DNA of 64,000 nt, from NCBI GenBank assembly GCA_017387685.1, contig JAFOEU010000055.1:89989-153988 (forward strand), in the 5' to 3' direction. This DNA comes from Clostridia bacterium. GTDB lineage: Bacteria; Bacillota; Clostridia; Oscillospirales; CAG-272. The notes below the pieces were generated by a model. It searched no databases and was not told where the DNA came from. It saw only the letters and a program-made list of their open reading frames with translations. Made by a program: the position numbers and the translations under genes. Below are positions 1,099-53,147 of this stretch, piece by piece; position 1 is the stretch's first letter; each line of letters starts with the position of its first letter.

Positions 1099-1314
1099 AG
1101 TTGCTAGTTGCTAGTTACTAGTTGCTGGTTGAAGGTGAATTTCCGAGCCGACGGCTCGGAAATTTTTGATTTTATCAAAAACAGCGGAAAAGTTTTTGAG
1201 GTTTCTTAAGGAACTTTTTTCAAAAAGTTCCTTAAGTCGAGCTCCGCAGAGCTCGAAACTCCCTTTTGCGCTTCGAAGCGACGGCGCCCCGCCGGCGTTT
1301 CGGAAGGAGTAAAA
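1094..1314 (+). repeat. composite modular repeat: 6x TTGCTAG-type heptamers, AAGGTGAATTT junction hairpin, palindrome CTTAAGGAACTTTTTTCAAAAAGTTCCTTAAG, CCGCAG-loop hairpin and a conserved tail
   Basis: Heptamers lie at 1094-1135 and the junction hairpin at 1131-1167. The downstream modules recur in reverse orientation at 19198-19289, 25515-25656, 29104-29225 and 49300-49392. Confidence 0.85.
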
Positions 1315-1337
1315 CCACCGCTTTGGCGGTGGTTTTT
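1311..1337 (-). terminator. intrinsic terminator (usable on both strands) downstream of the AAA ATPase gene
   Basis: AAAACCACCGCTTTGGCGGTGGTTTTT. It has the same CACCGCTTTGGCGGTG core as the hairpin at 1071-1086. Confidence 0.7.
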
Positions 1338-1360
1338 GGTTCAGAAGTAAAAATATTCGA

Positions 1361-4105: not shown

Positions 4106-5272
4106 ATGAAGAATATCAAGTTAATGAATAAAATCGCCGCTTGCGGTACCGATATTTTTGACCGCGCGGTATATAACGTCGCTGACGACTGTGCGGCGCC
4201 CGAGGCGATAATGGTTCGCTCCGCCGCGCTTCACGATATGGAATTCAACCCCGAGCTTCTCGCGATCGCGCGTTGCGGTGCGGGTGTCAACAATATTCCG
4301 ATCGACCGCTGCACCGAGGCGGGAGTTGTAGTTTTCAACACCCCCGGCGCGAATGCGAACGGCGTTAAGGAGCTCGTTATCTGCGCGCTGATGCTTGCAT
4401 CGCGTGACGTTATCGGCGGCGCAAATTGGTCCGAAACGCTTACAACCGACGTTGCAAAGACGGTAGAGAAGGGCAAATCCGCTTTCGCAGGCTGTGAGCT
4501 TCGCGGTAAGACTCTCGGAGTTATCGGTCTCGGCGCGATCGGAGCAATGGTCGCAAACGCCGCGATCGACCTTGGTATGAAGGTTATCGGCTACGACCCC
4601 TACCTGACCGTTGACGGAGCGTGGAGAATTTCCCGTGCGGTAGGCCACGCGGTCACAACCGACGAAATTTTTGAAAAGAGCGATTATATCACCCTCCACG
4701 TTCCCGCTGTTGAGGCAACGAAGGGTATGATCCGCAAGGAAAATATTGATAAGATGAAGGATGGCGTCAAGATCATCAACCTTGCGCGCGCGGATCTCGC
4801 GATCGCGGCTGATATCAAGGACGCAATCGCGGCGGGCAAGATCTCGGCGTACGTCACCGACTTCCCGACCGAGGAAACCCTCGGTGTCAAGGGCATCGTT
4901 AATATCCCCCACCTTGGTGCATCCACGGGTGAGAGCGAGGATAACTGCGCGATCATGGCGGCAAATCAGCTCGTTGAGTTCCTTTCCACGGGTAATATCA
5001 AGAATTCCGTCAACTTCCCCGCGATCGATCTTCCTCCCCACGACGGCAGAAACGTCCTTGTCCTCCACGCAAACGTACCCGCGACCATCGCAAAGATCAC
5101 GACCGCCGTTGCGGAAAAGGGCGTCAACATCGAGCACCTTTCCAATAAATCCCGCGGCAACAACGCTTGCACACTCCTTGCCCTCGCCGTCGGCACCACC
5201 GACGCAGAGATCGCCGAAATGAAGAAGGCTATCGAAGCAAACGCAGGCATCTGGAGAGTAGTCGTTATTTAA
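4106..5272 (+). CDS. serA: D-3-phosphoglycerate dehydrogenase with a C-terminal ACT-like domain
   Basis: 2-hydroxyacid dehydrogenase NAD site GVIGLGAIGAMVA. The protein is 388 aa and the gene lies directly downstream of serC. Confidence 0.88.
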   Translation: MKNIKLMNKIAACGTDIFDRAVYNVADDCAAPEAIMVRSAALHDMEFNPELLAIARCGAGVNNIPIDRCTEAGVVVFNTPGANANGVKELVICALMLASRDVIGGANWSETLTTDVAKTVEKGKSAFAGCELRGKTLGVIGLGAIGAMVANAAIDLGMKVIGYDPYLTVDGAWRISRAVGHAVTTDEIFEKSDYITLHVPAVEATKGMIRKENIDKMKDGVKIINLARADLAIAADIKDAIAAGKISAYVTDFPTEETLGVKGIVNIPHLGASTGESEDNCAIMAANQLVEFLSTGNIKNSVNFPAIDLPPHDGRNVLVLHANVPATIAKITTAVAEKGVNIEHLSNKSRGNNACTLLALAVGTTDAEIAEMKKAIEANAGIWRVVVI

Positions 5273-5575
5273 GTGCAGAGTTAAGAGTGCAGAGTGCAGA
5301 GTTGAGGTGGATTTTCAAGCTCCGCTTGAAAATCATTGGTGCTTTAATTTTGTGCGGTGCTGATGCAATTTACTGCTGTGCTGAAATACAGAGAATAAAA
5401 TAAAAATCTCGGATATTTCGAAGCTTCGCTTCGGATATCCGAGATTTTTTAATTTGTTATGACTTTGGCTATGTGAAATTTAATCAGCACATCACAAAAT
5501 TATTAATATGGAATTTTCGCCACGGCGAAAATTTCCCTTCAACTCTGCACTCTGCACTCTTAACTCTGCACTTGA
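5273..5575. repeat. complete foldback element filling the serA / lipoprotein convergent spacer
   Basis: 5273-5305 is the exact reverse complement of 5539-5571 (33 bp of GTGCAGA-type heptamers). Junction hairpins lie at 5310-5335 and 5511-5535. A nested inverted repeat surrounds the central terminator. Confidence 0.9.
5402..5450. terminator. bidirectional intrinsic terminator
   Basis: AAAAATCTCGGATATTTCGAAGC-TTCG-CTTCGGATATCCGAGATTTTTT, with an A-run and a T-run flanking a long stem. Confidence 0.85.
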
Positions 5576-7153
5576 TCATTCCTCTTCCTCTTCGTCAACG
5601 TCGATAAAAATGACCTTTACCTGCGCGCTGCCGCGCTTGGTGACCTTGAGGGAGCGGTTGCGCGATACGGTGTAGGTCTTTCCGTCCGCCGTTACGCGCG
5701 CGGAGAAGCTGAAGCCGACCGAGGCAACGTGTCCGTTTGAATCGAAGTTTATATAGGCTTTGGCATCGTCGCAGGAGGTAACGCTGATCACGTCGGCATA
5801 AATTCCCGCGGCAAGCAGAGCTTCGCGTGCGAGCATTATTTTACCTTCTTGATTGATCGAAAAGGAAAGTCGTTCCGCCGTGTATTCCTCTATGCGGGCG
5901 AAAGCCCAAAAGGGAAGCATTGAACGGTCAAAGGGCGCGGTCAGAGTAGACTCGAGATTTTTTGCATTAAAGGTTGTGTCGACGAATATGCTTCCGCTAT
6001 TTATCTGCGAGAAGGCACGGCGGCGGTTGAAATGCGTTAAAACACGCGTTTTGCCCGAGCCGGTGTCAAACACTCTCTCAAATGTCGCTCCGATCTTTTT
6101 GGCGTATGCGTAATCGATTTTTTCACTCAAATGGCGTTCAGCCGTGCCGCCGATACGGATATCGTCGTTCTCCTGCAGCTCGAAAGCCTGATATCGCCCG
6201 AAAAACGAGTCGACGTCAGCAAGCGCGGCTTCATAAATCGTGAGCGCGGCGGAGTCGGGGATCAGAACGTATGAGGTCATCGCGGGGAGCGTGAGAGAGT
6301 TCTTTTCGTTAATGCCGCTCTGCTCGGTGCGCGAGGTAAGACGAAAAGACAAAACGTGATTGCCACCCCGCTCCACATCCGCCTCGAGAGATAACACCTT
6401 CTCCCTCATATGCGCCGCGGTGTCGGTGACGTAGAGAAATTCGGCTTTGGTGATCCTGAGCTCATATTTCTCGGTCAAGCCGAGCATTTTAGCGATCTCG
6501 CCAATACCCTCGGTGGTGATCTTATCAAATTTCAAGGTTATATTCTCGCTGTCGACTTCAACAGTCCCGTCCTCGAAGGCGGTCATGGGAAAATAATTTC
6601 CCGCCAGCTTGGAGAAGGACGAGATATCGTATCCTCCGAAGCGGTAGTTGCCGAATTTTCCGCCGTAACAGAGAAATCCGTCGATCAAGAAATATTCCTC
6701 ACTCTCGCCGTCCGATGTGCGCCTGAATGAGGCGTTTCCATCGCTTGTGAGAAGCTCGGAGAAGATTTCGTGGCGTGAGTTTACCCCGCCCTGAACGATC
6801 TCGGTCACGGTTTGTGTTTTTCGTGTACACGACGTGTATACCTCAGAGAATCTTTCCGATACCTCAAAGATCGTCTGTGCGGGAAGAGTTGCCATTACGT
6901 CCACAAGGGAGGTTTCCTCGGGCTCGGTATACTCTGGCTCGGTATACTCGGGCTCGGTTTCTATCGGCTCTGTCTTTGGAGGCTCGGTCACTTCTGTTTC
7001 GGGGGAAGTGGTTTCGGGAGCGAGGGTGGTTTCGGGCTCGGGGAGCTCCGTGATAGATGCGCTGATGACCTCGCCCTCATAGGGCGGCGTCTCGACCGCA
7101 CATGCAGACAAAAGCAATGAGCACGCGAGGACGAGCGGGATCAGGCGCTTCAT
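5576..7153 (-). CDS. lipoprotein of unknown function with a Thr/Glu/Pro-rich linker
   Basis: Signal peptide and lipobox MKRLIPLVLACSLLLSAC. Contains a TEPEYTEPEYTEPE repeat. The start overlaps the upstream gene by 4 nt. Confidence 0.7.
   Translation of the reverse strand: MKRLIPLVLACSLLLSACAVETPPYEGEVISASITELPEPETTLAPETTSPETEVTEPPKTEPIETEPEYTEPEYTEPEETSLVDVMATLPAQTIFEVSERFSEVYTSCTRKTQTVTEIVQGGVNSRHEIFSELLTSDGNASFRRTSDGESEEYFLIDGFLCYGGKFGNYRFGGYDISSFSKLAGNYFPMTAFEDGTVEVDSENITLKFDKITTEGIGEIAKMLGLTEKYELRITKAEFLYVTDTAAHMREKVLSLEADVERGGNHVLSFRLTSRTEQSGINEKNSLTLPAMTSYVLIPDSAALTIYEAALADVDSFFGRYQAFELQENDDIRIGGTAERHLSEKIDYAYAKKIGATFERVFDTGSGKTRVLTHFNRRRAFSQINSGSIFVDTTFNAKNLESTLTAPFDRSMLPFWAFARIEEYTAERLSFSINQEGKIMLAREALLAAGIYADVISVTSCDDAKAYINFDSNGHVASVGFSFSARVTADGKTYTVSRNRSLKVTKRGSAQVKVIFIDVDEEEEE
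6919..6960 (-). repeat. in-frame 15-bp tandem repeat encoding EPEYT units
   Basis: GGCTCGGTATACTCT GGCTCGGTATACTCG GGCTCGGTTTC on the + strand. Confidence 0.7.
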
Positions 7154-8607: not shown

Positions 8608-10263
8608 ATGAAAAAATATACCGTTGGAATAGATTTCGGAACGCTTTCGGGCAGAGCTGTGCTCGTTGACGTTATGACGGGCGAGGAGTGCGCAAGCGTC
8701 GTGATGGACTACCCTCACGCCGTCATCGACAGCATCCTTCCCGCGAGCGGTGAGGTGCTCCCGATCAATTGGGCACTCGAAGACCCGCGCGATTATCTCG
8801 CAGTTCTCGAATTTCTTTTCCCCGCGCTCTGCCGCGAGGCGGGCATCGAAAAGGAGCAGATCGTCGGTGTCGGCATCGACTTCACCTGCTGTACGATCCT
8901 TCCGATCAAAAAAGACGGCACCGCGCTCGTTTCTCTGCCCGAGTTTGAGCAGAATAAGCACGCCTACGTCAAGCTCTGGAAGCATCACGCCTCCCAGCCG
9001 TGGGCGGACCGTATGAACGAGGTTGCCGCAGAGCGAGGCGAGACCTTCGTCAATTATTTTGGCGGTAAGATATCGAGCGAATGGCTCTTCCCGAAGCTTC
9101 TCCAAACCGCAAAGGAAGCCCCCGAGGTCATAGAGGCGGCTGATTACTATATCGAGGCGGGAGATTGGCTCAATTTCTTGCTCACCGGCGTGCAGAAGCG
9201 CGGATATCTTTTCGCGTCCTACAAGGCGGAGTATCTGCCGGACGTCGGATACCCCTCCGACGAATATCTCGCGGCGGTCGATCCCGAGCTACCCGAGCTC
9301 GCGCACCGTCTGCTTGACGCCCCCATCGCGCAGATGGGCGAGTGCGTCGGTCGCGTTACCAAAGAGGCGGCTGAAAGATTCGGTCTTGCCGAGGGTACTG
9401 CCGTTGCCGCGTCGATCCCCGATGCCCACGTTGCCGCCCCCGCTGTTGGACTGACCAAGCCCGGCGATATTTACGGCATTTTCGGCACTTCCAATTGCTA
9501 TTTTACACTTGCTGATATTTACAGAGATATTGGCGGAATCTGCGGATACGTTCCCGACGGTCTTATGCCGGGTTACTTCGGCGTTGAAGCGGGACTTTGC
9601 GCCGTAGGCGACCATTTTGCGTGGGTTGTGGACAATCTTGCAACCGCAGAGGACAAGGCGGAAGCCGAGCAGCTCGGAATTCCCGTCATTCAGCTCCTCG
9701 TCCGCCGCGCGGCAAAGAAAAAGCCGGGCGAAACCGGACTTCTCGCCCTCGACTGGTGGAACGGAAACCGAAACATCCTCGTTGACGGCAATCTGACGGG
9801 ACTTTTGATCGGTATGACGCTCCGCACCAAGACCGATGATATCCTCCGCGCCCTTATTGAGGCGACCGCGTTTGCGACCAAGGTCATCATCGACCGTATG
9901 GAGGAATGCGGAATGAAGATCGACAGCCTCATCGCCGCGGGCGGAATCGCGCGCAAGGACGCATTTACGATGCAGGTCTACTCCGACGTCCTCGGCATCC
10001 CGATCAATGTAATTTCCTCAAAACAGGCTCCCGCACTCGGCAGTGCTATCTACGCCGCCGTTGCCGCAGGCGAATACCCCGACATTTTTGCCGCCTCCGA
10101 CGCTATGAAGAGCCCGATCTACAGCAGTTATACCCCCAATAAAGAGAACGAAAAGGTCTACTCCGCACTCTACCGCGAATACCTCACCCTTCACGACTAT
10201 TTCGGTCGCGGCGGGAACGACGTTATGAAGCGTTTGCTTAAGATCTCGCAGGGGGAGATTTAA
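8608..10263 (+). CDS. araB: FGGY-family sugar kinase, most likely L-ribulokinase
   Basis: The N-terminus GIDFGTLSGRAVLV and the 551-aa length match ribulokinases as I remember them. Confidence 0.75.
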   Translation: MKKYTVGIDFGTLSGRAVLVDVMTGEECASVVMDYPHAVIDSILPASGEVLPINWALEDPRDYLAVLEFLFPALCREAGIEKEQIVGVGIDFTCCTILPIKKDGTALVSLPEFEQNKHAYVKLWKHHASQPWADRMNEVAAERGETFVNYFGGKISSEWLFPKLLQTAKEAPEVIEAADYYIEAGDWLNFLLTGVQKRGYLFASYKAEYLPDVGYPSDEYLAAVDPELPELAHRLLDAPIAQMGECVGRVTKEAAERFGLAEGTAVAASIPDAHVAAPAVGLTKPGDIYGIFGTSNCYFTLADIYRDIGGICGYVPDGLMPGYFGVEAGLCAVGDHFAWVVDNLATAEDKAEAEQLGIPVIQLLVRRAAKKKPGETGLLALDWWNGNRNILVDGNLTGLLIGMTLRTKTDDILRALIEATAFATKVIIDRMEECGMKIDSLIAAGGIARKDAFTMQVYSDVLGIPINVISSKQAPALGSAIYAAVAAGEYPDIFAASDAMKSPIYSSYTPNKENEKVYSALYREYLTLHDYFGRGGNDVMKRLLKISQGEI

Positions 10264-10325
10264 GTGGCTAGTGACTAGTGGCTAGTGACTAGTGAAGGTG
10301 AATTTTCGCCAAAGGCGAAAATTTT
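10264..10325 (+). repeat. repeat arm: GTGGCTA/GTGACTA heptamers + AAGGTGAATTTTCGCC-AAA-GGCGAAAATTTT
   Basis: The arm starts on the nucleotide after the araB stop. It has five heptamers and then the junction hairpin. Confidence 0.85.
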
Positions 10326-10422
10326 CCGAATTAATTAATATACAAGTGCGAACATAGGCGCACTTGTATAGTACGAGTTACTATTTAACAAACGCATACA
10401 CCACCTTTCAAGGAGGATCATA

Positions 10423-10782
10423 ATGAAAAAACTCCCCCGCGAATCGGGCGTCGTGGTCGCTTGCGATTACAAAAAGATGCTTGCAATTCTGGATCATATC
10501 TTTTTCGATATATTTGACTCCAACGACAATTGCCTCGCCGCACTTTTGGGTGCTTGGTCACTCGACGTTATGTCCGACGGTGCGCCCGCCGATCTCGGTG
10601 ACTATGAAATCTGGCTCGAGTGCGAGTCGGAAAACAAGGATGCAGACGTCCGCACAAAAACTCTCGCCTTCCTCAACCGTTTCATTGAAACCTTCGGCTT
10701 CGATGAACTCAACAGCACCGTCGAAGAAGTGAAAAAACTCCCCGACACTCAAATCAAAATCCTGACCGAAAATATCAAATAA
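10423..10782 (+). CDS. hypothetical acidic 119-aa protein
   Basis: Strong RBS AAGGAGG. I recognise no motif. The gene is bracketed by two repeat arms. Confidence 0.55.
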   Translation: MKKLPRESGVVVACDYKKMLAILDHIFFDIFDSNDNCLAALLGAWSLDVMSDGAPADLGDYEIWLECESENKDADVRTKTLAFLNRFIETFGFDELNSTVEEVKKLPDTQIKILTENIK

Positions 10783-10786
10783 AATA

Positions 10787-10861
10787 CTTTTCGCCCACGG
10801 CGAAAAGTTACCATACCTTTTCCCTTTTCCCTTTTCCCTTTAACCTTTCCCCTCTTTCCCC
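10787..10861 (-). repeat. repeat arm (reverse orientation): hairpin CTTTTCGCC-CAC-GGCGAAAAG + GTTACC + CCTTTTC heptamers
   Basis: Heptamers occupy 10816-10861. The arm ends 10 nt before the ATG at 10872. Confidence 0.8.
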
Positions 10862-12734: not shown

Positions 12735-13583
12735 ATGCATATTAATATCAATATCGGTACAAGTGAAAAGGATTTCAACACCGAAAAGAAGAAAAAGCTC
12801 ACACCCGAGCAGAAGACGAAGATCAAAAATGCGGTAAAATCGGGTTATGGAAAGCTCCGCGTTGCCGCGGGCAGACTTTATTCGACCGTTGAGGACAAGG
12901 TCTTTGACGGCAGATGCTTCCTCTCCGAGCTGAAAGAGGGGATCCTTGAAGACGTTGCTGCCGTCCGTGAGCGAGACCCCGCGGCGAGAAGCGACATTGA
13001 GGTCATGCTTCTCTATTCGGGCGTTCACGCGATGCTCGCATACCGCGTGGCGCATAAGCTTTACGTCAATGAAAAATTTCTCCCCGCGAGAGCGGTTTCA
13101 CAGCTTGCGCGATTCCTGACGGGAATTGAGATCCACCCCGGCGCGCAGATCGGTAAGCGACTTATGATCGACCACGGCTCGGGCGTCGTAATCGGCGAGA
13201 CCTGCATCATCGGCGACGATTGCACGATCTATCAGGGCGTAACCCTCGGCGGTACGGGTAAGGACACGGGCAAGCGACACCCCACACTCGGCAATAATGT
13301 AATGGTCGGCTCGGGCGCAAAGGTCCTCGGACCGTTCAAGATCGGCGACGGCGCGAAGATCGCGGCGGGCGCGGTGGTACTCAAAGAGATCCCCGCGGGC
13401 GCGACTGCAGTCGGCATCCCCGCGAAGGTAGTGCGCCGCAAGGGCGAACGCGTTGAGGAACAGCTCGACCAGATCCACATCCCCGACCCCGTATCGCAGC
13501 AACTCGGAGAGCTTGAGGCGAAGATAGCTGAACTTAAGAGCGAGATCGAGGAGCTCAAGAAGGGCGAGGAAAGTGCAGAGTGA
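12735..13583 (+). CDS. cysE: serine O-acetyltransferase with N- and C-terminal extensions
   Basis: RERDPAARS and hexapeptide repeats (IHPGAQIGKRLMIDHGSGVVIGETCIIGDDCTIYQGVTLGG). The RBS is AAGGAG. The last codons and the stop lie inside the heptamer repeat. Confidence 0.88.
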   Translation: MHININIGTSEKDFNTEKKKKLTPEQKTKIKNAVKSGYGKLRVAAGRLYSTVEDKVFDGRCFLSELKEGILEDVAAVRERDPAARSDIEVMLLYSGVHAMLAYRVAHKLYVNEKFLPARAVSQLARFLTGIEIHPGAQIGKRLMIDHGSGVVIGETCIIGDDCTIYQGVTLGGTGKDTGKRHPTLGNNVMVGSGAKVLGPFKIGDGAKIAAGAVVLKEIPAGATAVGIPAKVVRRKGERVEEQLDQIHIPDPVSQQLGELEAKIAELKSEIEELKKGEESAE

Positions 13584-13741
13584 AGAGTGCAGAATGCAGA
13601 GTTAAGGAGAATTTCCTTGCCTGCGGCTGCGGAAATTTTCAATTCTGATATAAACTCAACTCAAACTTTATAATAAAATTATTTTTCGCTTCAGCGAAAA
13701 ATTACCGTAACTCTGCACTCTGCACTCTGCATTCTGCACTG
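13573..13741. repeat. complete foldback element (GTGCAGA arms) between cysE and the GDPD gene
   Basis: Left heptamers lie at 13573-13607 with a hairpin to 13640. The right hairpin is at 13681-13703 and CTCTGCA heptamers at 13711-13741. Confidence 0.85.
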
Positions 13742-13807
13742 TTATGCTCAACAAAATCAAGAAAAACAAATTAAAATACAAAATACATCCGAAAGGAAAC
13801 AAAGAAA

Positions 13808-23025: not shown

Positions 23026-23150
23026 TCGGCTTCGCCGAGTGATAATCTCGCTTCGCGAGAGTGATAATCCGCCTGCGGCGGAGTGATAATTTCCGCTGCG
23101 CGGAAAATAAAGGTGAATTTTCTCGCCTTCGGCTCAAAAATTATTAAATT
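23026..23150 (+). repeat. repeat arm: 3x AGTGATAAT + mini-hairpin units, then AATAAAGGTGAATTTT and a degenerate hairpin
   Basis: TCGGCTTCGCCGA GTGATAAT CTCGCTTCGCGAG AGTGATAAT CCGCCTGCGGCGG AGTGATAAT TTCCGCTGCGCGGAA. Confidence 0.8.
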
Positions 23151-24986: not shown

Positions 24987-25116
24987 AAATATATTATAGC
25001 ATATTTTGGGCACTTTGTAAACACTTAATTGAAATTTTAGCGTAGTTTATAAAGTTTAACAAAAAGAAAATTCCCGCCGAAGCGGAAATTTTCTATATGC
25101 AAAATTATAAAAAGGA

Positions 25117-25145
25117 TTGACAAAATATAAAAACCGGTGTATAAT
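25117..25145 (+). promoter_or_regulatory. promoter of the candidate antitoxin sRNA
   Basis: TTGACA (25117-25122), a 17-nt spacer, then TATAAT (25140-25145). Confidence 0.65.
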
Positions 25146-25450: not shown

Positions 25451-25514
25451 TAAAAACGTTATGATAAGTAAAAAAGAAATGAAGGAGCAAAAATCTCCCG
25501 CAAGGGGAGATTTT

Positions 25515-25738
25515 ACTCCTTCCGAACAGCCGCCGGGGCGGCGTCTGTTCGAAGCGCGGAGGGAGTTTCGCCGTCTGCGGACGGCGACTTAAGGCTCTGC
25601 CTTAAGAAACCGCAAGTTTTTGAAAAAACTTGACTAAAACTTTCCCGCTATCTTTATTTCGCCGCAGGCGAATTATCACTCTCGCGAAGCGAGATTATAA
25701 CTCTGCCGTAGGCAGATTATCACTCGCGCTCTGCGCGA
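25515..25738 (-). repeat. composite repeat (reverse orientation) ending in ATTATCACT + mini-hairpin units
   Basis: ACTCCTTCCGAA...TTCGAAGCGC..GGGAGTTTCG-CCGTCTGCGGACGG-CGACTTAAGG...AAAACTTTCCCGCT, then the array at 25657-25738. The mazF ORF ends inside the array. Confidence 0.8.
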
Positions 25739-34430: not shown

Positions 34431-34645
34431 AGGGGATAATAGAGATAAGTTGCTCCCGAAGGGAGCAGTGATAATCTCGCTTCGCGAGAGTGATAATCCG
34501 CCTTTCGGCGGAGTGATAATTTGCCTGCGGCAAAGTAAAGGTAAATTTCCTCGCTTTGCTCGGAAATTATCGAATGATTTATTTACTTTCAGCGAAGCTG
34601 AAATTATCACTCTCGCGAAGCGAGATCATCACTGCCCCTCGGGCA
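34431..34645. repeat. foldback element with AGTGATAAT + mini-hairpin arms (about 4 left units, 2 right units)
   Basis: The left arm is 34431-34535. The junction hairpin AAGGTAAATTTCCTCGC-TTTG-CTCGGAAATT is at 34536-34568. The right arm TTTCAGCGAAGCTGAAATTATCACTCTCGCGAAGCGAGATCATCACT is at 34587-34645. Confidence 0.8.
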
Positions 34646-42548: not shown

Positions 42549-43058
42549 CGAGATCGGGTTAATCTCGCTTCGCTCGAGTTATAATCCGCCTTCGGCGGAG
42601 TGATAATCGCCTTGCGGCGAGTGATAATTTGCCTTCGGCAAAATGAAGGTAGATTTTCGCCGAGGCGAAAATCTTTGATTTAAATAATAAGCGATGTTAC
42701 AAATAAGCCTTCCCCGGCGGGGAAGGTGGCAGCCCTTGCGGCTGCCGGATGAGGGGATCGCCGTCTGTACCGCAGACACGACAAGCGTATATGCATTTTC
42801 ATATAATTGAAAATTTCCGCCTCGGCGGAAATTCACCTTTATTTTTCGCGCAGCGAAAATTATCATTCTCGCGAAGCGAGATTATCATTTTGCCGAAGGC
42901 AGATTATCACTCGCCGCAAGGCGATTATCACTCCGCCGAAGGCGGATTATCACTCGAGCAAAGCGAGATTATCACTCCGCCGAAGGCGGATTATCACTCG
43001 AGCGAAGCGAGATTATCACTCCGCCGAAGGCGGACCATCACTCGAGCGTCAGCGAGAT
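42549..43058. repeat. large foldback element inside the ABC transporter operon (3 left units, structured core, 9 right units)
   Basis: Left words start at 42577, 42599 and 42620, with the junction hairpin at 42645-42673. The right junction hairpin is at 42809-42841. Right words ATTATCAYT start at 42859, 42881, 42903, 42924, 42946, 42968, 42990, 43012 and 43034. Confidence 0.9.
42686..42790 (+). ncRNA. conserved structured motif, copy 1 (function and functional strand unknown)
   Basis: H1 is CCTTCCCC-GGC-GGGGAAGG (42708-42726). H2 is GGCAGCC-CTTGC-GGCTGCC (42728-42746). GGATGAGGGGATCGCC follows. H3 is GTCTG-TACCG-CAGAC (42763-42777). Confidence 0.4.
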
Positions 43059-43074
43059 AGAAAGGACTTCAAAA

Positions 43075-43743
43075 ATGAGCATTCAACTAAAAAACGTATC
43101 ATACAGCTACCGCGGCAAGTACCAGACCGTTCGCGCGGTGAATTCGGTCAGCTTTGATTTTGACGAGGGCAAGGTCTACGCCGTAATCGGCAAATCCGGT
43201 TCGGGAAAGACCACTCTCCTCTCGCTTATGGCGGGGCTTGATCTGCCGACCGAGGGTGATGTGATCGTTGACGGAAAATCGACCCGCAAATGGGATCGAA
43301 ACCGTATGCGCCGCGAGGCTGTCTCGGTAATTTATCAGAATTATAACCTTTTTCCGCTTTTGAGCGTAATTGAAAATATCCGCTACCCGCTTGATCTGCG
43401 CAAGGTAAAGCGCGCGAAAGCCGACGAGATTGCACGCCGTATGCGCGAGCGCGTCGAGCTTTCCGAGTCATACGACGACCGCCTCCCCGCGCATCTTTCG
43501 GGCGGTGAGCAACAGCGCGTCGCAATCGCACGCTCCCTCGCGCAGGGCAGTAAGATCATACTCGCAGACGAGCCGACGGGTAATCTTGACACCAAAAACA
43601 CCGAAAATATCGTAAATATCCTCAAAAAGCTTGCCCACGAGGACGGTGCGACCGTTATTATCGTCACACACGATCTCGCCGTCGCCGAAAAAGCCGACGT
43701 GGTTCTCCGTATGAGCGACGGTGAACTTGTTGACAAAGCTTGA
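43075..43743 (+). CDS. ABC transporter ATP-binding protein (MacB/LolD-type)
   Basis: Walker A GKSGSGKTT, signature LSGGEQQRVAIARSL, Walker B IILADEPT. Confidence 0.9.
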   Translation: MSIQLKNVSYSYRGKYQTVRAVNSVSFDFDEGKVYAVIGKSGSGKTTLLSLMAGLDLPTEGDVIVDGKSTRKWDRNRMRREAVSVIYQNYNLFPLLSVIENIRYPLDLRKVKRAKADEIARRMRERVELSESYDDRLPAHLSGGEQQRVAIARSLAQGSKIILADEPTGNLDTKNTENIVNILKKLAHEDGATVIIVTHDLAVAEKADVVLRMSDGELVDKA

Positions 43744-45819: not shown

Positions 45820-46359
45820 ATGGAACTTAAGGGTTCAAGAACAGAACAGAATCTTCAGGCGGCTTTCGCAGGCGAATCGCAGGCGAGAAACAAGTACACC
45901 TACTACGCATCCAAGGCAAGAAAAGAGGGCTACGTTCAGATCGCTGACCTCTTTGAGGAGACCGCTAACAACGAAAAGGAGCACGCAAAGATCTGGTTCA
46001 AGCTCCTCCACGATGGCGAAGTACCCACCACTTCCGTCAACCTTCTCGATGCAGCAGAGGGCGAGAACTACGAGTGGACCGATATGTACGCAGAGTTTGC
46101 ACGCGTAGCAAAGGAAGAGGGCTTCACCAAGATCGCTTTCCTCTTTGAGAAGGTTGGCGAGATCGAGAAGCATCACGAAGAGAGATACCGCAAGCTTCTC
46201 GCAAACGTTGAGGGCGACCTCGTATTCTCCCGCGAGGGCGACACCGTATGGCAGTGCGCTAACTGCGGTCACATCGTAATCGGCAAGAAGGCGCCCGTAA
46301 AGTGCCCCGTTTGCGATCATCCTCAGGCATATTTCCAGGAGCTTGCACAGAATTATTAA
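45820..46359 (+). CDS. rbr: rubrerythrin
   Basis: Di-iron domain [18 protein letters not shown] and EKEHAKIW. The C-terminal rubredoxin is CANCG...CPVC. Confidence 0.92.
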
Positions 46360-46364
46360 TTAAA

Positions 46365-46432
46365 GTTACTAGTTGCTAGTTATTAGTTACTAGTTAAAGG
46401 TAAATTTCCGCCCCGATGGGGCGGAAATTTTT
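46365..46432 (+). repeat. repeat arm: GTTRCTA heptamers + TTAAAGGTAAATTTCCGCCCC-GAT-GGGGCGGAAATTTTT
   Basis: The arm begins 5 nt after the rbr stop. It matches the reverse-oriented arm at 48087-48153 at about 42 of 48 positions. Confidence 0.85.
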
Positions 46433-46439
46433 GATTTTA

Positions 46440-46469
46440 TTGACAATTACCTCTTTTTTATGGTATAAT
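46440..46469 (+). promoter_or_regulatory. sigma-A type promoter
   Basis: TTGACA, an 18-nt spacer, then TGG-TATAAT. Confidence 0.6.
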
Positions 46470-46505
46470 AAATATAACTATCCCCCATCCGAAAGGAAAA
46501 TTACG

Positions 46506-47012
46506 ATGTCTAAAATTAAAACTCTCTCGCTTTTCTTTGCTCTGACCTTGCTTCTCTGCGCTCTCGTTTCCTGCGCGGACGATCCTTACTACAAATTCGA
46601 CCGCAAGCTTGAACCCTTGACCGACGAGCAGATCGAGGAATGCAACTCGGCTTACAGAGAAGATTATTTCGGAGCTTACGACGAATATATTGCTTCCAAA
46701 TCCGAGGATATGCGCGAGCAGGCGGAAAAGGCATATTTCGGTATGAAATTCATTCAGAATAGCGTTTACAACCCCTATCTCGGCACCTTCAGCGGAGCGA
46801 TCGTCGTCGGCACTTCGATCCGCAACGAGAAAGAAACCTATATCATCGGCGTTACCGAATTTGAAATGGGCTCGCTGAAGAAGATCACCGTCTATAAGAA
46901 CGGTGAGTTTGTGTCGCTCTCGCAGGCATATAACAGCGGCTGGCTGACCGACGAGGATATCGCGGGCTTATCCGCAAGAATCGAAAAGTACGAAAAGGAA
47001 ATGAAAAAATGA
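46506..47012 (+). CDS. lipoprotein, unknown function
   Basis: Lipobox LLLCALVSC. Trimmed to the ATG at 46506. Confidence 0.65.
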   Translation: MSKIKTLSLFFALTLLLCALVSCADDPYYKFDRKLEPLTDEQIEECNSAYREDYFGAYDEYIASKSEDMREQAEKAYFGMKFIQNSVYNPYLGTFSGAIVVGTSIRNEKETYIIGVTEFEMGSLKKITVYKNGEFVSLSQAYNSGWLTDEDIAGLSARIEKYEKEMKK

Positions 47013-48088
47013 GATTCATATTCCCTCAAAACGGCGACTGCATAAATGCAAATGACGGCTTACCGCTCAAAGTACTCGTTGAAGCACCTGCCGATGGCGA
47101 TATTTACGTCGGCGGCGTGAAAGCCGAATTTTCGGACGGCGTGTGGAGTACAACCGTGCCGATTTCCGCATATAAAACCACTCTCACAGCCGAAAACAGA
47201 AAAAACGGCGATAACTGCGCCGTCACTCTGCTGAAATTTGCCGATCCCGTGGGCAAGTTCCGCCTCTCATCCGATGATAACATCCTCTTTTTGCAGGATA
47301 TTACGAAAAATCAGGATAAATACACCTCGATTTTCGATAACCCCTACCTCGCGCTTTACAAAAAAGCGCACGATCTCTACGGCGCGTGCATTCATCTCAA
47401 TCTGTTTTACGAATATATCCCCGACGAAAAATATTTCGCCGCCCATCCCGATTATTTCAATCTCTCGATGATGACGGACAAATTCAAGTCGGAATTCGAG
47501 GCGAATTCGGATTGGCTCAAGCTCGCATTCCACTCAAATGCCGAATTCCCCGATAAGCCGTATAAATTCGCGACCGCAGAGCAGATCACCGAGGATTTTC
47601 TCAAGATTCGCCGCGAGATCGTTCGCTTCGCGGGGGAGAGCTCGACGACGAACTCGACCACCGTTCATTTCGGTGCGGCGAACCGCGAGGTCGTCCGCGC
47701 ACTCCACGCCCTCGGTCTGCGCTCGCTGACGGGGTATTTCAGACGCAATGCAAAGGGCGAACCGAGCGTTTCCTACTATTTTGAGGACGAAAGGCTTGAA
47801 CATATCGGCTCGCGCGACTTCTGGTACGATGAGAGCGAGGATATGATCTTCGCGCAGATCGATCTTGTGCTCAATGAAAAGACCTACTCCGACGTGATGG
47901 AAGCCCTCCCGAGGATCGCGGACGATCCGCACCGCGGCGGTTTCATCTCGCTGATGATCCACGAGCAGTATTTCCACCCCGACTACCGCCGCCACCTCCC
48001 CGATTTCGAGGCACGCGTGCTTGATTCTTGTGCATTCTTGCATAAGAGGGGATACATTGGCGAGCATATATCAAATATTACAAAATAA
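47009..48088 (+). CDS. hypothetical 359-aa protein
   Basis: It overlaps the upstream gene by ATGA. I recognise no motif with confidence. Confidence 0.5.
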   Translation: MRFIFPQNGDCINANDGLPLKVLVEAPADGDIYVGGVKAEFSDGVWSTTVPISAYKTTLTAENRKNGDNCAVTLLKFADPVGKFRLSSDDNILFLQDITKNQDKYTSIFDNPYLALYKKAHDLYGACIHLNLFYEYIPDEKYFAAHPDYFNLSMMTDKFKSEFEANSDWLKLAFHSNAEFPDKPYKFATAEQITEDFLKIRREIVRFAGESSTTNSTTVHFGAANREVVRALHALGLRSLTGYFRRNAKGEPSVSYYFEDERLEHIGSRDFWYDESEDMIFAQIDLVLNEKTYSDVMEALPRIADDPHRGGFISLMIHEQYFHPDYRRHLPDFEARVLDSCAFLHKRGYIGEHISNITK

Positions 48089-48153
48089 AAAATCCGCTCG
48101 AAAATCGAGCGGATTTTTACCTTTAACCAGCAACTAACAACTAGCAACTAGCA
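48087..48153 (-). repeat. repeat arm (reverse orientation): hairpin/terminator AAAAAATCCGCTCG-AAAA-CGAGCGGATTTTT + ACCTTTAACC + AACTAGC-type heptamers
   Basis: The arm ends 7 nt before the stop of the minus-strand transporter gene. The hairpin also serves as terminator for the + gene ending at 48088. Confidence 0.85.
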
Positions 48154-48160
48154 ACTTTTA

Positions 48161-49150
48161 TCAGAACGCTCCTCCCATACGAAGCAGGAAGGTTACGAGG
48201 AACACGGTGAGTGCCGATGCGAGGGTGGACCAGACTACGAGCTGACCCGCAAGGGTGACGTCGCCGCCCATTTCCTGTACCATAGGTACGCTGGGAACTG
48301 CAACGGGGGTTGCGAATGCCGCAACGAGGGTTGCGAACTGCGCGGGAGTAAAGCGGTCGCGCAGGAAAATGAATGCAATGCCGAGGACGAGTGCGGGAAC
48401 GATAACGGTACGGGTGAGAGTACCGAAAATGATCTCCTTTTTGAGTGCCGCAACTGCGGAGAACTCAAACTGCGCGCCGAGAACGAGGAGTGCAAGCGGG
48501 ATCGCGAGGTCTGCGAGGTAATTGAGTACCTGGAAGAGCGGTCCGATGTTCGAGAGCTTGAAGGTGATTCCCGCAGGCTCGAATATAAATGTGCGTACCG
48601 CAACGCAAGCGAGTGCGGCAAAAATACCGATGATAAGAGGGTTCTTGATGATGTCAAGAACGATCTTGAGGGGCGAAACCTTTTCGCCGCTGTCGTTGCC
48701 GAGCGCGGAAAGGCTGATGACTGCGAGCACGTTGAAGCAGGGGATAAGCGCGGCGGAAAGAATGGTCGCCGCCATCATACCCTCGTCACCGTAAAGCGAG
48801 CCTGCAAGCGGAATACCGATCAGGGAGTAACCCGAGCGGAAGATCGCCTGAACGAGAACGCCGACGCGGTCCTTTTTGCCCGCGATGAGCAGACAAGCGG
48901 GGATGGAAAGTCCGAAAATAACGAAAAGCGCGATAAGACAGTAGCCGATGAAGCCGAAATCGACGTCCGAAAGCTTCATATCGTAGATCTTAACGAAGAG
49001 CATTACGGGCATGAACGCGCGGAAAACGAGCTTGTTTGCCTTCTTGGCAAAATCCTCATCCATCATGCCGATCTTTTTGAAGAAATAGCCGACAACAACG
49101 GCGAGAACGATGGGCGCAACTGCGGAAAGAGCGAAAATTAACGAATCCAT
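48161..49150 (-). CDS. AEC (auxin efflux carrier) family transporter
   Basis: A 329-aa polytopic protein. The N-terminus is MDSLIFALSAVAPIVLAVVVGYFFKK. Trimmed to the ATG at 49150. Confidence 0.75.
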   Translation of the reverse strand: MDSLIFALSAVAPIVLAVVVGYFFKKIGMMDEDFAKKANKLVFRAFMPVMLFVKIYDMKLSDVDFGFIGYCLIALFVIFGLSIPACLLIAGKKDRVGVLVQAIFRSGYSLIGIPLAGSLYGDEGMMAATILSAALIPCFNVLAVISLSALGNDSGEKVSPLKIVLDIIKNPLIIGIFAALACVAVRTFIFEPAGITFKLSNIGPLFQVLNYLADLAIPLALLVLGAQFEFSAVAALKKEIIFGTLTRTVIVPALVLGIAFIFLRDRFTPAQFATLVAAFATPVAVPSVPMVQEMGGDVTLAGQLVVWSTLASALTVFLVTFLLRMGGAF

Positions 49151-52357: not shown

Positions 52358-52588
52358 AGTATGACCTCCTTTGAGTGTTGAGATAATTGTATCACAAAAC
52401 GGAGGAAAATGCAATAGGGTAGGGGAAATATCTCGCGAAGCGAGAGTTATAATCTCGCTTACGCTCGAGTGATGATCCGCCTTGCGGCGGAGTGATAATC
52501 TCGCTTCGCTCGAGTGATAATTTGCCTGCGGCAAAGTTAAGGTGGATTTTCGCCGAGGCGAAAATCTCGATTTTTATTAAAATAATTT

Positions 52589-52695
52589 GCAAGTCTGTCA
52601 TATCTGCGGTACAGACTTCGATCTCCTCATCCACCACTGCCGTGGTCCCCCTTCCCCGCTGGGGAAGGCTGATTTTGAACATCGCTTATCATTTC
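52589..52695 (-). ncRNA. conserved structured motif, copy 3 (inverted relative to copies 1 and 2)
   Basis: The reverse complement reads GCCTTCCCC-AGC-GGGGAAGG, then GACCAC-GGCA-GTGGT, then GGATGAGGAGATCGAA, then GTCTGT...ACAGAC. H2 has a different sequence but still pairs. Confidence 0.4.
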
Positions 52696-52824
52696 TAAAC
52701 TTCGTTAAGTACGCTAATCATATCAAGAAAATGATAAAAACAAAATATATTTACAACTATTTTGCTAATTATGAGTAAGGAAATATAATTATCGAGTCTT
52801 TCTGCGGTGCTATATCACTATAAC

Positions 52825-52916
52825 ATATGTTCGCAGTTGCTATATAAGCCTTCCCCAGCGGGGAAGGTGGCAGCCCTTGGGGCTGACGGATGAGGAGACC
52901 GAAGTCTGTACTAGAC
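52825..52916 (+). ncRNA. conserved structured motif, copy 2
   Basis: CCTTCCCC-AGC-GGGGAAGG (52849-52867), GGCAGCC-CTTGG-GGCTGAC, GGATGAGGAGACCGAA, GTCT-GTACT-AGAC. Confidence 0.4.
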
Positions 52917-53147
52917 GAGGAATAGAGGCACTTATTATTTAATAAATATCGAAGATTTTCGCCGAGGCGAAAATCAACCTTAACTTTGCCGCAGGCAAAT
53001 TATCACTCGAGCGAAGCGAGATTATCACTCCGCCGAAGGCGGATTATCACTCTCGCGTAAGCAAGATTATCACTCCGCCGCAAGGCGGATTATCACTCTC
53101 GCGTAAGCGAGATTATCACTCCGCCGCAAGGCGGATTATCACTAAAT

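Follow-up and report, generated by a model that had tools for sequence, protein, structure and literature searches.

Inverted GTTRCTA arms around a lipoprotein operon in a Clostridia bacterium are probably separate copies of a modular 3′-end repeat

In a 64,000-nt stretch of a Clostridia bacterium genome (contig JAFOEU010000055.1; "the window" below, to which all plain coordinates refer), two inverted arms built from GTTRCTA heptamers stand about 1.7 kb apart. One follows the rubrerythrin gene rbr, the other follows a transporter gene of the AEC family, and they enclose a promoter, a lipoprotein gene and a gene for a hypothetical protein of 359 amino acids (aa), as the original prediction had claimed. 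The locus raises the question of whether the two enclosed genes are cargo, inserted into a foldback element or carried between terminal inverted repeats, or whether each arm simply belongs to the gene that it follows. We consider the last reading probable, at roughly 0.7: the arms would be independent copies of one abundant modular intergenic repeat, each of which became fixed at the 3′ end of the gene that it follows. There is no sign that the 1.8-kb unit moves. This removes the lead of a gene-carrying foldback transposon and makes the finding, as first posed, an ordinary one; the repeat family itself is moderately interesting.

The arms and the repeat family behind them

The matched inverted arms are real. 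They are identical at 42 of 48 positions; the four differences within the heptamers are all A/G changes at position 4 of the unit, and the remaining ones (six of 48 differ in total) are a TT/AA difference in the foot of the hairpin. A repeat search recovered the pair as arms of 53 nt that are 87% complementary, with 1697 nt between them. The left arm, AAAGTTACTAGTTGCTAGTTATTAGTTACTAGTTAAAGGTAAATTTCC at 46362-46409, begins 2 nt past the TAA stop codon of rbr (46357-46359). The right arm, AAAGTTGCTAGTTGCTAGTTGTTAGTTGCTGGTTAAAGGTAAAAATCC, is the reverse complement of 48111-48158 and lies 2 nt past the TGA stop codon of the AEC gene (48161-48163, minus strand). In the window there are 10 matches to the heptamer pattern GTTRYTAGTTRYTA where 0.09 would be expected, and Tandem Repeats Finder places arrays of period 7 at 46364-46396 and 48125-48156.

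Both arms run on into a hairpin that resembles an intrinsic terminator, a feature absent from the original prediction: each has a GC-rich hairpin and a T-run located 3′ of a stop codon. On the left (46362-46399, plus strand), AAA is followed by GTTACTA, GTTGCTA, GTTATTA and GTTACTA and then by GTTAAAG, a last unit that merges into the junction. The junction GTTAAAGGTAAATTT, the hairpin AAATTTCCGCCCC-GAT-GGGGCGGAAATTT and a T-run (46393-46439, plus strand) make up the predicted intrinsic terminator of rbr. This module scores 51.4 bits with R1, a covariance model of junction plus hairpin, and its predicted fold has an energy of −22 kcal/mol; the terminator scan places the hairpin at 46402-46430 (+), with 13 pairs (7 GC) and a tail TTGATTTTAT; the letters that come next after the hairpin are TTGATTTT. 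On the right (48113-48160, minus strand; R1 score of 34.3 bits), TAAAA is followed by GTTGCTA, GTTGCTA, GTTGTTA and GTTGCTG and by the junction GTTAAAGGTAAAAAT. Its hairpin, AAAAATCCGCTCGA-TTT-TCGAGCGGATTTTT in the minus-strand reading (the loop is AAA on the plus strand), occupies 48088-48118 and is a predicted bidirectional terminator serving the 359-aa gene (+) and AEC (−); in the scan it runs from 48118 to 48088 (−), with 14 pairs and a tail TATTTTGT, the letters next after the hairpin being TATTTT. The left and right hairpins are unrelated in sequence (CCGCCCC vs CCGCTCG).

We considered a special relationship between the two arms and rejected it. The right arm has 4 differences in 43 from the left arm, 4 from the copy at position 1093 of the window and 5 from the left arm of a related locus (L082 of the set described below), so that its partner is no nearer to it than are the copy at 1093 or the orthologous left arms of other genomes.

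The arms belong to a family of modules with a common order. Reading outward from the coding sequence, a stop codon is followed by an array, a junction AGTTAAGGTRAATTT, an A/T-clamped GC hairpin and a T-run. The array consists either of 4-5 AGTNNNN heptamers or of 22-nt hairpin units. The heptamer words in the window are AGTTRCT, AGTGCAG, AGTGRCT and GAAAAGG-like, to which related genomes add AGTGGAC and AGTGAAA, and the 22-nt unit is AGTGATAATC plus a stem of 4-5 bp whose loop is of the UUCG or UGCG type (UNCG-type). Arrays of 3-10 tandem 22-mers are located at 23029-23104, 25650-25730, 34467-34520, 42560-42639, 42847-43058, 52444-52532 and 52988-53143, and their junction and terminator are those of the heptamer arrays too. 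Searching with R1 with filters off, we found exactly 18 strong module copies in the window, both arms included. The hairpin helix is 87.8% paired across them with 22 double-sided changes, a level reached by none of 500 shuffles. The array of every one of the 18 copies is on the hairpin side that is closest to a coding sequence. Ten of the 18 arrays adjoin a stop codon on the same strand, at −12 to +38 nt, and the other 8 face the start side of a gene reading away. Eight of the 11 heptamer arrays of the window come after stop codons. At 25061-25093, upstream of a site at 25118 that resembles a promoter, there is a weak extra junction/hairpin match (23.7 bits, E = 0.004) with no array.

Over 1.15 Mb of related loci, R1 matches occurred only where the 359-aa protein is at least 66% identical, a distribution by which the family appears to be lineage-restricted. 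The junction pattern AAGGTRAATTTYCGCC was found in metagenomes at 120 loci or more from unrelated environments, and none of the matches listed had a period-7 sequence upstream; in viral sequences the pattern TTAAGGTRAATTTYCG gave 22 single chance matches. Within this uncultured ruminant-gut Clostridia lineage the family fills about one in 3-4 intergenic regions and is predicted to supply many of the terminators. It may serve as a strain marker and as a natural experiment on the generation and homogenisation of terminator-proximal repeats. It also carries a warning for metagenome assembly and binning, as many contigs of the relatives end at these repeats. The idea that GTTRCTA arrays provide stop codons in all frames (a TAG every 7 nt) was rejected, since AGTGCAG and AGTGGAC arrays contain no stop codons.

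The enclosed operon and its relatives

We fetched 80 loci from species-representative genomes (L numbers below), and more by exact-protein look-ups, among 1567 homologues of the 359-aa protein. The GTTRCTA array of the left arm comes after rbr in four other genomes too, and in L082, L002 and L257 it stands, with a CCGCCC hairpin, directly after the stop codon. The L082 sequence at this place is TAATTAAAGTTACTGGTTGCTAGTTATTAGTTACTGGTTGAAGGTAAATTTCCGCCCCGATGGGGCGG, and the irregular third unit, GTTATTA, is common to L082 and the window. As these rbr orthologues carry the same array and hairpin, the left arm is best explained as rbr's own, vertically inherited 3′ module. Orthologues of rbr at 97-98% protein identity also show further 3′-end states: 22-mers of the ATGATAATC type followed by the same terminal hairpin, 22-mers of the GTTAAGAT type followed again by that hairpin, and a plain terminator followed by AGTGGAC heptamers.

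At the other end, every AEC orthologue examined retains the coding end of the gene, and the terminal hairpin AAAAATCCGCTCGAAWTTCGAGCGG recurs in L002, L003 and L241. The array at this 3′ end takes five states. It is made of GTTRCTA heptamers in the window and in L241 (98% AEC identity), where the arm is identical; of three AGTGATAATC 22-mers in L002 (97%); of other hairpin units in L003 (94%); and of AGTGGAC heptamers in L238-L240 (88%). In L236 and L237 (91%) there is none, just TGATAAAAG and a plain hairpin. The proposal that each arm is a 3′-end module, of rbr and of AEC respectively, thus finds support on both sides, in an orthologous left arm and in a right hairpin that is linked to AEC.

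The gene order fur-rbr-(0-2 genes)-lipoprotein-359-aa gene, in some loci with a 212-aa gene at its end, is shared by L002, L082 and some 17 others; counted without the optional genes, it extends to more than 20 loci. In most of these the right neighbour is a convergent AP-endonuclease gene with a plain bidirectional terminator and no right arm. Orthologues of AEC at 88-91% identity have unrelated neighbourhoods. From the AP-endonuclease loci and these unrelated contexts, we infer that AEC joined an existing rbr-lipoprotein-359-aa block, and not that the operon dropped between rbr and AEC. The insertion of cargo into a foldback, put forward in the original prediction, does not agree with the synteny of the relatives: scored as rbr-lipoprotein-359-aa and lipoprotein-359-aa-AEC, it is kept in L002, L003, L082 and L241 regardless of the type of array, heptameric or other, on the AEC side. 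L002, L082 and L257 have the left arm but no right one, and the operon is present without arms in L004-L007 and L086-L088. No empty site, with rbr directly facing AEC, was found among the AEC orthologues (98, 97, 94, 91 and 88% identity) and 20 loci with rbr orthologues (97-98%).

Two checks that had been suggested for a mobile unit gave the same answer. There is no target-site duplication: the outer flanks are ATTATTAATT before the left arm and TATCAGAACG after the right arm, that is, the rbr and AEC stop codons, with no direct repeat. A foreign origin of the lipoprotein and 359-aa genes was likewise rejected, as both are native in GC content, which is unremarkable, and in codon usage, which correlates with that of the other window genes at r = 0.81 and 0.80, in the middle of the range.

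In relatives at 91-94% identity the operon has a third gene (212 aa), and in L002 the AEC terminator is preceded by a further 2.2 kb of DNA. An element of about 170 nt that resembles a small RNA (sRNA) separates the left arm from the promoter in these relatives; the window is without it and has the microhomology TTTTAT at the junction. Given the extra gene, the extra DNA and this element in the relatives, the tight bracket is probably a derived state shaped by deletion.

The history that we favour would then be as follows. The left arm would terminate rbr and have been inherited vertically with it, and the right arm would terminate AEC and, via the shared hairpin, the 359-aa gene, with the arrays transcribed as parts of 3′ untranslated regions. 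The operon of the lipoprotein and 359-aa genes, an old neighbour of fur-rbr, would be expressed from its own promoter. Three changes would have produced the neat bracket: loss of the sRNA-like element that had stood between left arm and promoter; absence of the 212-aa gene and of the other DNA that L002 has before the AEC terminator; and exchange of the array on the AEC side for one of the GTTRCTA type. The new array would have been copied from another module, by a process that gives facing modules the same type, which may be copying or conversion between nearby inverted modules, or their birth as foldbacks.

The genes concerned are assigned as follows. The rbr gene (45820-46359, +) matches Pfam Rubrerythrin (6e-28) and RUBY_RBDX. 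A predicted sigma-70-type promoter for the operon, TTGACA-18-TATAAT with an extended TG and a 12/12 match, lies at 46440-46469 (+) and is conserved in L002, L003, L082 and L004-L007. The lipoprotein gene (46506-47012, +; 168 aa) encodes a signal peptide with the lipobox LVSC, judged from the translation, has no family assignment and accompanies the 359-aa gene in all relatives. The 359-aa conserved hypothetical gene (47009-48088, +) encodes a protein without a sequence match in Pfam, NCBIfam or the PDB. Its AlphaFold2 model (pLDDT of 94.7) predicts an N-terminal beta-sandwich and a (beta/alpha)-barrel-like domain, and Foldseek returned weak matches to deacetylase-like and glycosidase barrels. 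Going by the model, the 359-aa protein does not appear to be a mobility protein, and neither enclosed gene resembled a transposase in family searches or in the fold search of the 359-aa model. The AEC-family (Mem_trans) gene occupies 48161-49150 (−), with a match to Pfam PF03547 at 2e-18 and homologues of 329 aa.

The sRNA-like element has three hairpins and a terminator, starts with CAGCGGAAAAGTTTTTGA, ends with GCTCCTTCA and usually comes directly after an array/terminator module. Elsewhere in the window it is located at 1165-1338 (+) and 25470-25640 (−), and in the relatives at 9245-9420 and 17393-17555 of L002, 1-150 of L003 and 1030-1130 of L082. Between AEC and a sulfatase gene, L002 (14395-17533) and L241 (267-2227) carry genes for a sigma-70/ECF factor and a 468-aa partner that are not in the window, and the AEC-sulfatase region as a whole is a mosaic of indels at module sites.

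Type matching of facing modules and the alternatives

The two arms share a word type, which the original prediction had treated as coincidence if the arms are 3′-end modules. This part of that explanation is doubtful. Among facing (+ then −) modules of the window, 5 of 6 pairs share their array type (permutation p = 0.0012), against 1 of 11 non-facing neighbours. The matched pairs are 5300/5544 and 13600/13712 (both AGTGCAG), 46393/48127 (GTTRCTA), and 42642/42843 and 52535/52985 (both 22-mers). The two gene-free arm pairs that had been noted before are confirmed among them, and we place them at 5272-5572 and 13572-13742. Independent pairs in the relatives are matched in L231 (13105/13218), L015 (1925/2015, around a single hairpin) and L238-L240 (AEC/ADH, with identical arms) and mismatched in L002 (rbr/AEC) and L249, which brings the matched pairs to 8 of 11.

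The arrays also change quickly between strains: five 3′ states of AEC, four of rbr, and one switch between strains whose SerC proteins are identical. The last concerns the FGGY-to-PTS site of L231, a strain that shares its SerC protein with the window. L231 has a matched AGTGCAG pair there (13105-13260) with no gene inside, and its plus-side hairpin is identical to the hairpin at position 13600 of the window. At the same site (10263-10860) the window has an unmatched pair, with an AGTGRCT module, a 119-aa open reading frame (ORF; 10423-10782) and a GAAAAGG-type array on the resident hairpin CTTTTCGCCCACGGCGAAAAG. This hairpin is kept in both genomes, and both arrays differ. At site 1128, by comparison, the window and L231 have the same type and number of units, with 5-6 transitions in 35 nt and identical flanks. 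On these alignments, arrays seem to be the fastest-evolving part of the genomes, exchanged as cassettes between the stop codon and the conserved junction. Ordinary gene conversion is unsupported as the means of exchange, since there is no homology on the coding side. Candidate processes would be one-ended template switching primed from the junction, a single-strand transposase that recognises hairpins, or selection for RNA pairing. If the matching of types reflects a dedicated mechanism, short inverted repeats would have a mode of concerted evolution that is new.

Several of these observations weigh against reading the arms as independent 3′-end modules. With array types correlated between facing modules, the two arms are not fully independent, and some of the matched pairs have arms without a single difference and are genuine foldbacks (5272/5544; 8990/9227 in L238), an origin that may apply to this pair too. 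The polarity of the array change at AEC, a gain here or a loss in L002 and L003, is set by parsimony from few genomes in a mosaic region. Finally, termination at both hairpins is a prediction from sequence features.

Of the alternatives, one keeps the two separate terminator modules and makes the shared type a matter of chance, AEC having gained a common array type. The GTTRCTA type is indeed carried by 3 of the 18 modules in the window and recurs in L015, L232, L240, L249 and L257. The right arm is as similar to copies that are not its partner, and the orthologous pair of L002 is unmatched. Against this stand the contrast between facing and non-facing pairs, the three further matched pairs of independent origin (L231, L015 and L238-L240) and the fact that, without this pair, the type is found in only 1 of 16 modules. 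The match is therefore probably not pure chance, and we regard this alternative as unlikely.

A tentative and unlikely suggestion is that the modules are an undescribed hypervariable element, in which a fixed terminator anchor carries an AGT-starting array cassette of 7-nt or 22-nt units that is actively rewritten from a small genome-wide repertoire and matched between facing modules. If true, this would imply a dedicated mechanism, for which the candidate processes named above would come into question, with the array type acting as a pairing code able to bracket whole operons.

Matching arrays might instead be selected for pairing between arms in read-through RNA, where a long duplex would clamp the intergenic region, or in this case an entire operon, for RNase III processing or as a fail-safe insulator, with the array type as the pairing code. 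The specificity of the matching for facing pairs agrees with this, as do the UNCG-type tetraloops of the 22-nt units, a feature at the level of RNA, and the high stability of the predicted duplexes: −43 kcal/mol for this pair in plus-strand RNA and −61 in minus-strand RNA, where G·U pairs form, compared with −53 to −69 for the gene-free pairs. However, the four A/G differences become A·C mismatches in RNA read through from rbr, and the good duplex needs 1.7 kb of antisense read-through from AEC. Paired arms are also not always perfectly complementary (13572/13712), and copying at the level of DNA explains the matching equally well. We hold selection of this kind to be improbable.

A further alternative is an ancestral GTTRCTA foldback between convergent rbr and AEC genes, with the operon inserted at its centre and the right arrays of L002 and L003 replaced later. 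Gene-free foldbacks with matched arms do fill the stop-to-stop gaps of convergent genes (5272-5572; AEC/ADH in L238), other inserts lie between facing modules (a GAAGG element at 52590-52920 that resembles miniature inverted-repeat transposable elements, or MITEs, and the 119-aa ORF at 10423-10782, which is absent in L231), and frequent replacement of arrays makes loss in L002 and L003 possible. Yet the linkage of rbr to the lipoprotein and 359-aa genes is much wider than that of rbr to AEC, with more than 15 loci that have AP-endonuclease on the right and no right arm; AEC orthologues (88-91%) lie in unrelated contexts without an empty rbr/AEC site among the loci checked; and the hairpins of the two arms differ in sequence. 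This makes a split foldback very improbable here.

A transposon, MITE-derived or foldback, with the arms as its terminal inverted repeats and the two genes as its cargo is barely credible, for all that 53-nt arms of 87% complementarity surround a self-contained promoter and two genes and that arms of this type bracket gene-free elements elsewhere, because there is no target-site duplication in the flanks, which are the two stop codons, and no transposase inside, the left arm and the operon each occur without the rest in the relatives listed above, and the cargo would be a native-looking lipoprotein and a protein like carbohydrate enzymes.

Some of the foldbacks are of interest in their own right. 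The one at 5272-5572, identical in L231, takes up precisely the 300 nt that separate the stop codons of two convergent genes. Its 35-nt AGTGCAG arms are identical to each other, down to an irregular unit AGTTAAG, and it has inner inverted repeats TAATTTTGTGNNGTGCTGAT and a central hairpin (5407-5450), and the family of this hairpin is also represented in the AEC/ADH foldback of L238-L240. A second MITE-like foldback repeat, with arms that contain GCCTTCCCCnnnGGGGAAGGTGGC and GGATGAGG, lies inside facing module pairs, in the interval from one hairpin to the other. It is found at 42700-42790 and 52590-52920 of the window, 11800-12280 of L002, 2500-2860 of L004 and 2480-2960 of L007. A segment of 1.17 kb (42557-43729), comprising a facing 22-mer pair and an ABC-ATPase ORF (43075-43743), is absent from L002, the closest species representative, at its position 6336.

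Comparison with described repeats

No published description of the repeat family was found in the literature searched. In their logic, BOX and SPRITE come nearest to it, and BrickBuilt and REP/BIME clusters are also near. Pneumococcal BOX elements have the structure boxA-boxB(n)-boxC with a variable copy number of boxB (PMC3049150), and SPRITE is a repeat near 3′ ends that resembles a Rho-independent terminator (Croucher et al., 2011; PMC3049150). The modules share with both that they are small, modular, interspersed intergenic repeats with a variable tandem part and predicted stem-loops, enriched downstream of coding sequences. Unlike BOX, each copy has one conserved end (junction and terminator), a second being present only in facing pairs, and the variable part is gene-proximal and uses several exchangeable types of 7-nt and 22-nt units, whereas in BOX it is mainly the number of a single type of boxB that changes. 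The sequences are unrelated to boxA, boxB and boxC by eye. A search of Rfam gave no family at or above its gathering score for the window, and none within the E-value threshold for the arm regions or the sRNA-like element.

The BrickBuilt MITE of Porphyromonas gingivalis is a 23-nt minisatellite with a leader and a tail (PMC4596501). Both it and the 22-mer modules have spacerless tandem units of about 22-23 nt, set between flanking subunits in an element that is dispersed, species-restricted and strictly confined to intergenic DNA. The ends of BrickBuilt are small inverted repeats, and it lies 49-591 nt from coding sequences and has promoter activity, whereas the modules here abut stop codons, end in predicted terminators and also use heptamer arrays.

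The REP/BIME sequences of proteobacteria are GC-rich, imperfect extragenic palindromes of 20-40 nt at 3′ ends, with a GTAG-type head, alternating Y and Z units and an associated RAYT (Y1 transposase) gene. Common to them and to our modules are the abundance of GC-rich imperfect palindromes (18 hairpin modules in 64 kb, and the 22-nt units), the position at 3′ ends, the covariation of the hairpin and the clustering in alternating orientation between convergent genes. The head is AGT(G/T) here instead of GTAG, the units are direct tandem repeats, and the heptamer arrays have no REP counterpart; no RAYT gene was seen among those window proteins that were screened, which were not all of them.

Cyanobacterial STRR sequences are tandem intergenic heptamers. 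The TAACTGA repeats of Beggiatoaceae, cyanobacteria and Bacteroidetes consist of one word a few nt upstream of start codons (PMC4679880). Like these, the arrays are intergenic direct repeats of 7 nt, in sets of 2-6 copies with hundreds of sets per genome, and the reverse complement of a GTTACTA array reads TAACTAG, which is close to TAACTGA. They differ in that there are at least five words, all starting with AGT, tied to a terminator module and mostly placed after stop codons. With ordinary bidirectional terminators the modules share the GC hairpin between an A-tract and a T-tract after stop codons, as in the hairpin at 48088-48118 that would serve both strands; an ordinary terminator lacks the conserved junction and array, which are common to 17 other sites.

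The HutP antiterminator site is UAG-N4 repeated three or more times next to a terminator. This spacing is found in GTTRCTA and AGTGRCT arrays (CUAGUUR...) and not in AGTGCAG, AGTGGAC or AGTGAAA arrays. We rejected HutP-like sites, as only two of at least five word types fit and the arrays stop 5-9 nt before the terminator stem without overlapping it. None of the systems compared combines a fixed terminator anchor with interchangeable array types that are matched across facing copies, and the family is one of small modular interspersed repeats that belongs to no named family.

The 359-aa proteins form a large, uncharacterised family with members also in Paenibacillus, Lentisphaerae, Planctomycetota and one archaeon. 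Its invariant residues are H175, H220 and H318-E319-Q320, and a small lipoprotein accompanies the homologues in every case, a 212-aa protein in many. Unrelated long heptamer arrays stand beside homologues in other phyla: CGTTGAG in a metagenome-assembled genome (MAG) of Lentisphaerae and 28 copies of CCACCGT in a Victivallales MAG (L073, 270-343 and 9111-10259; L074, 6534-6730).

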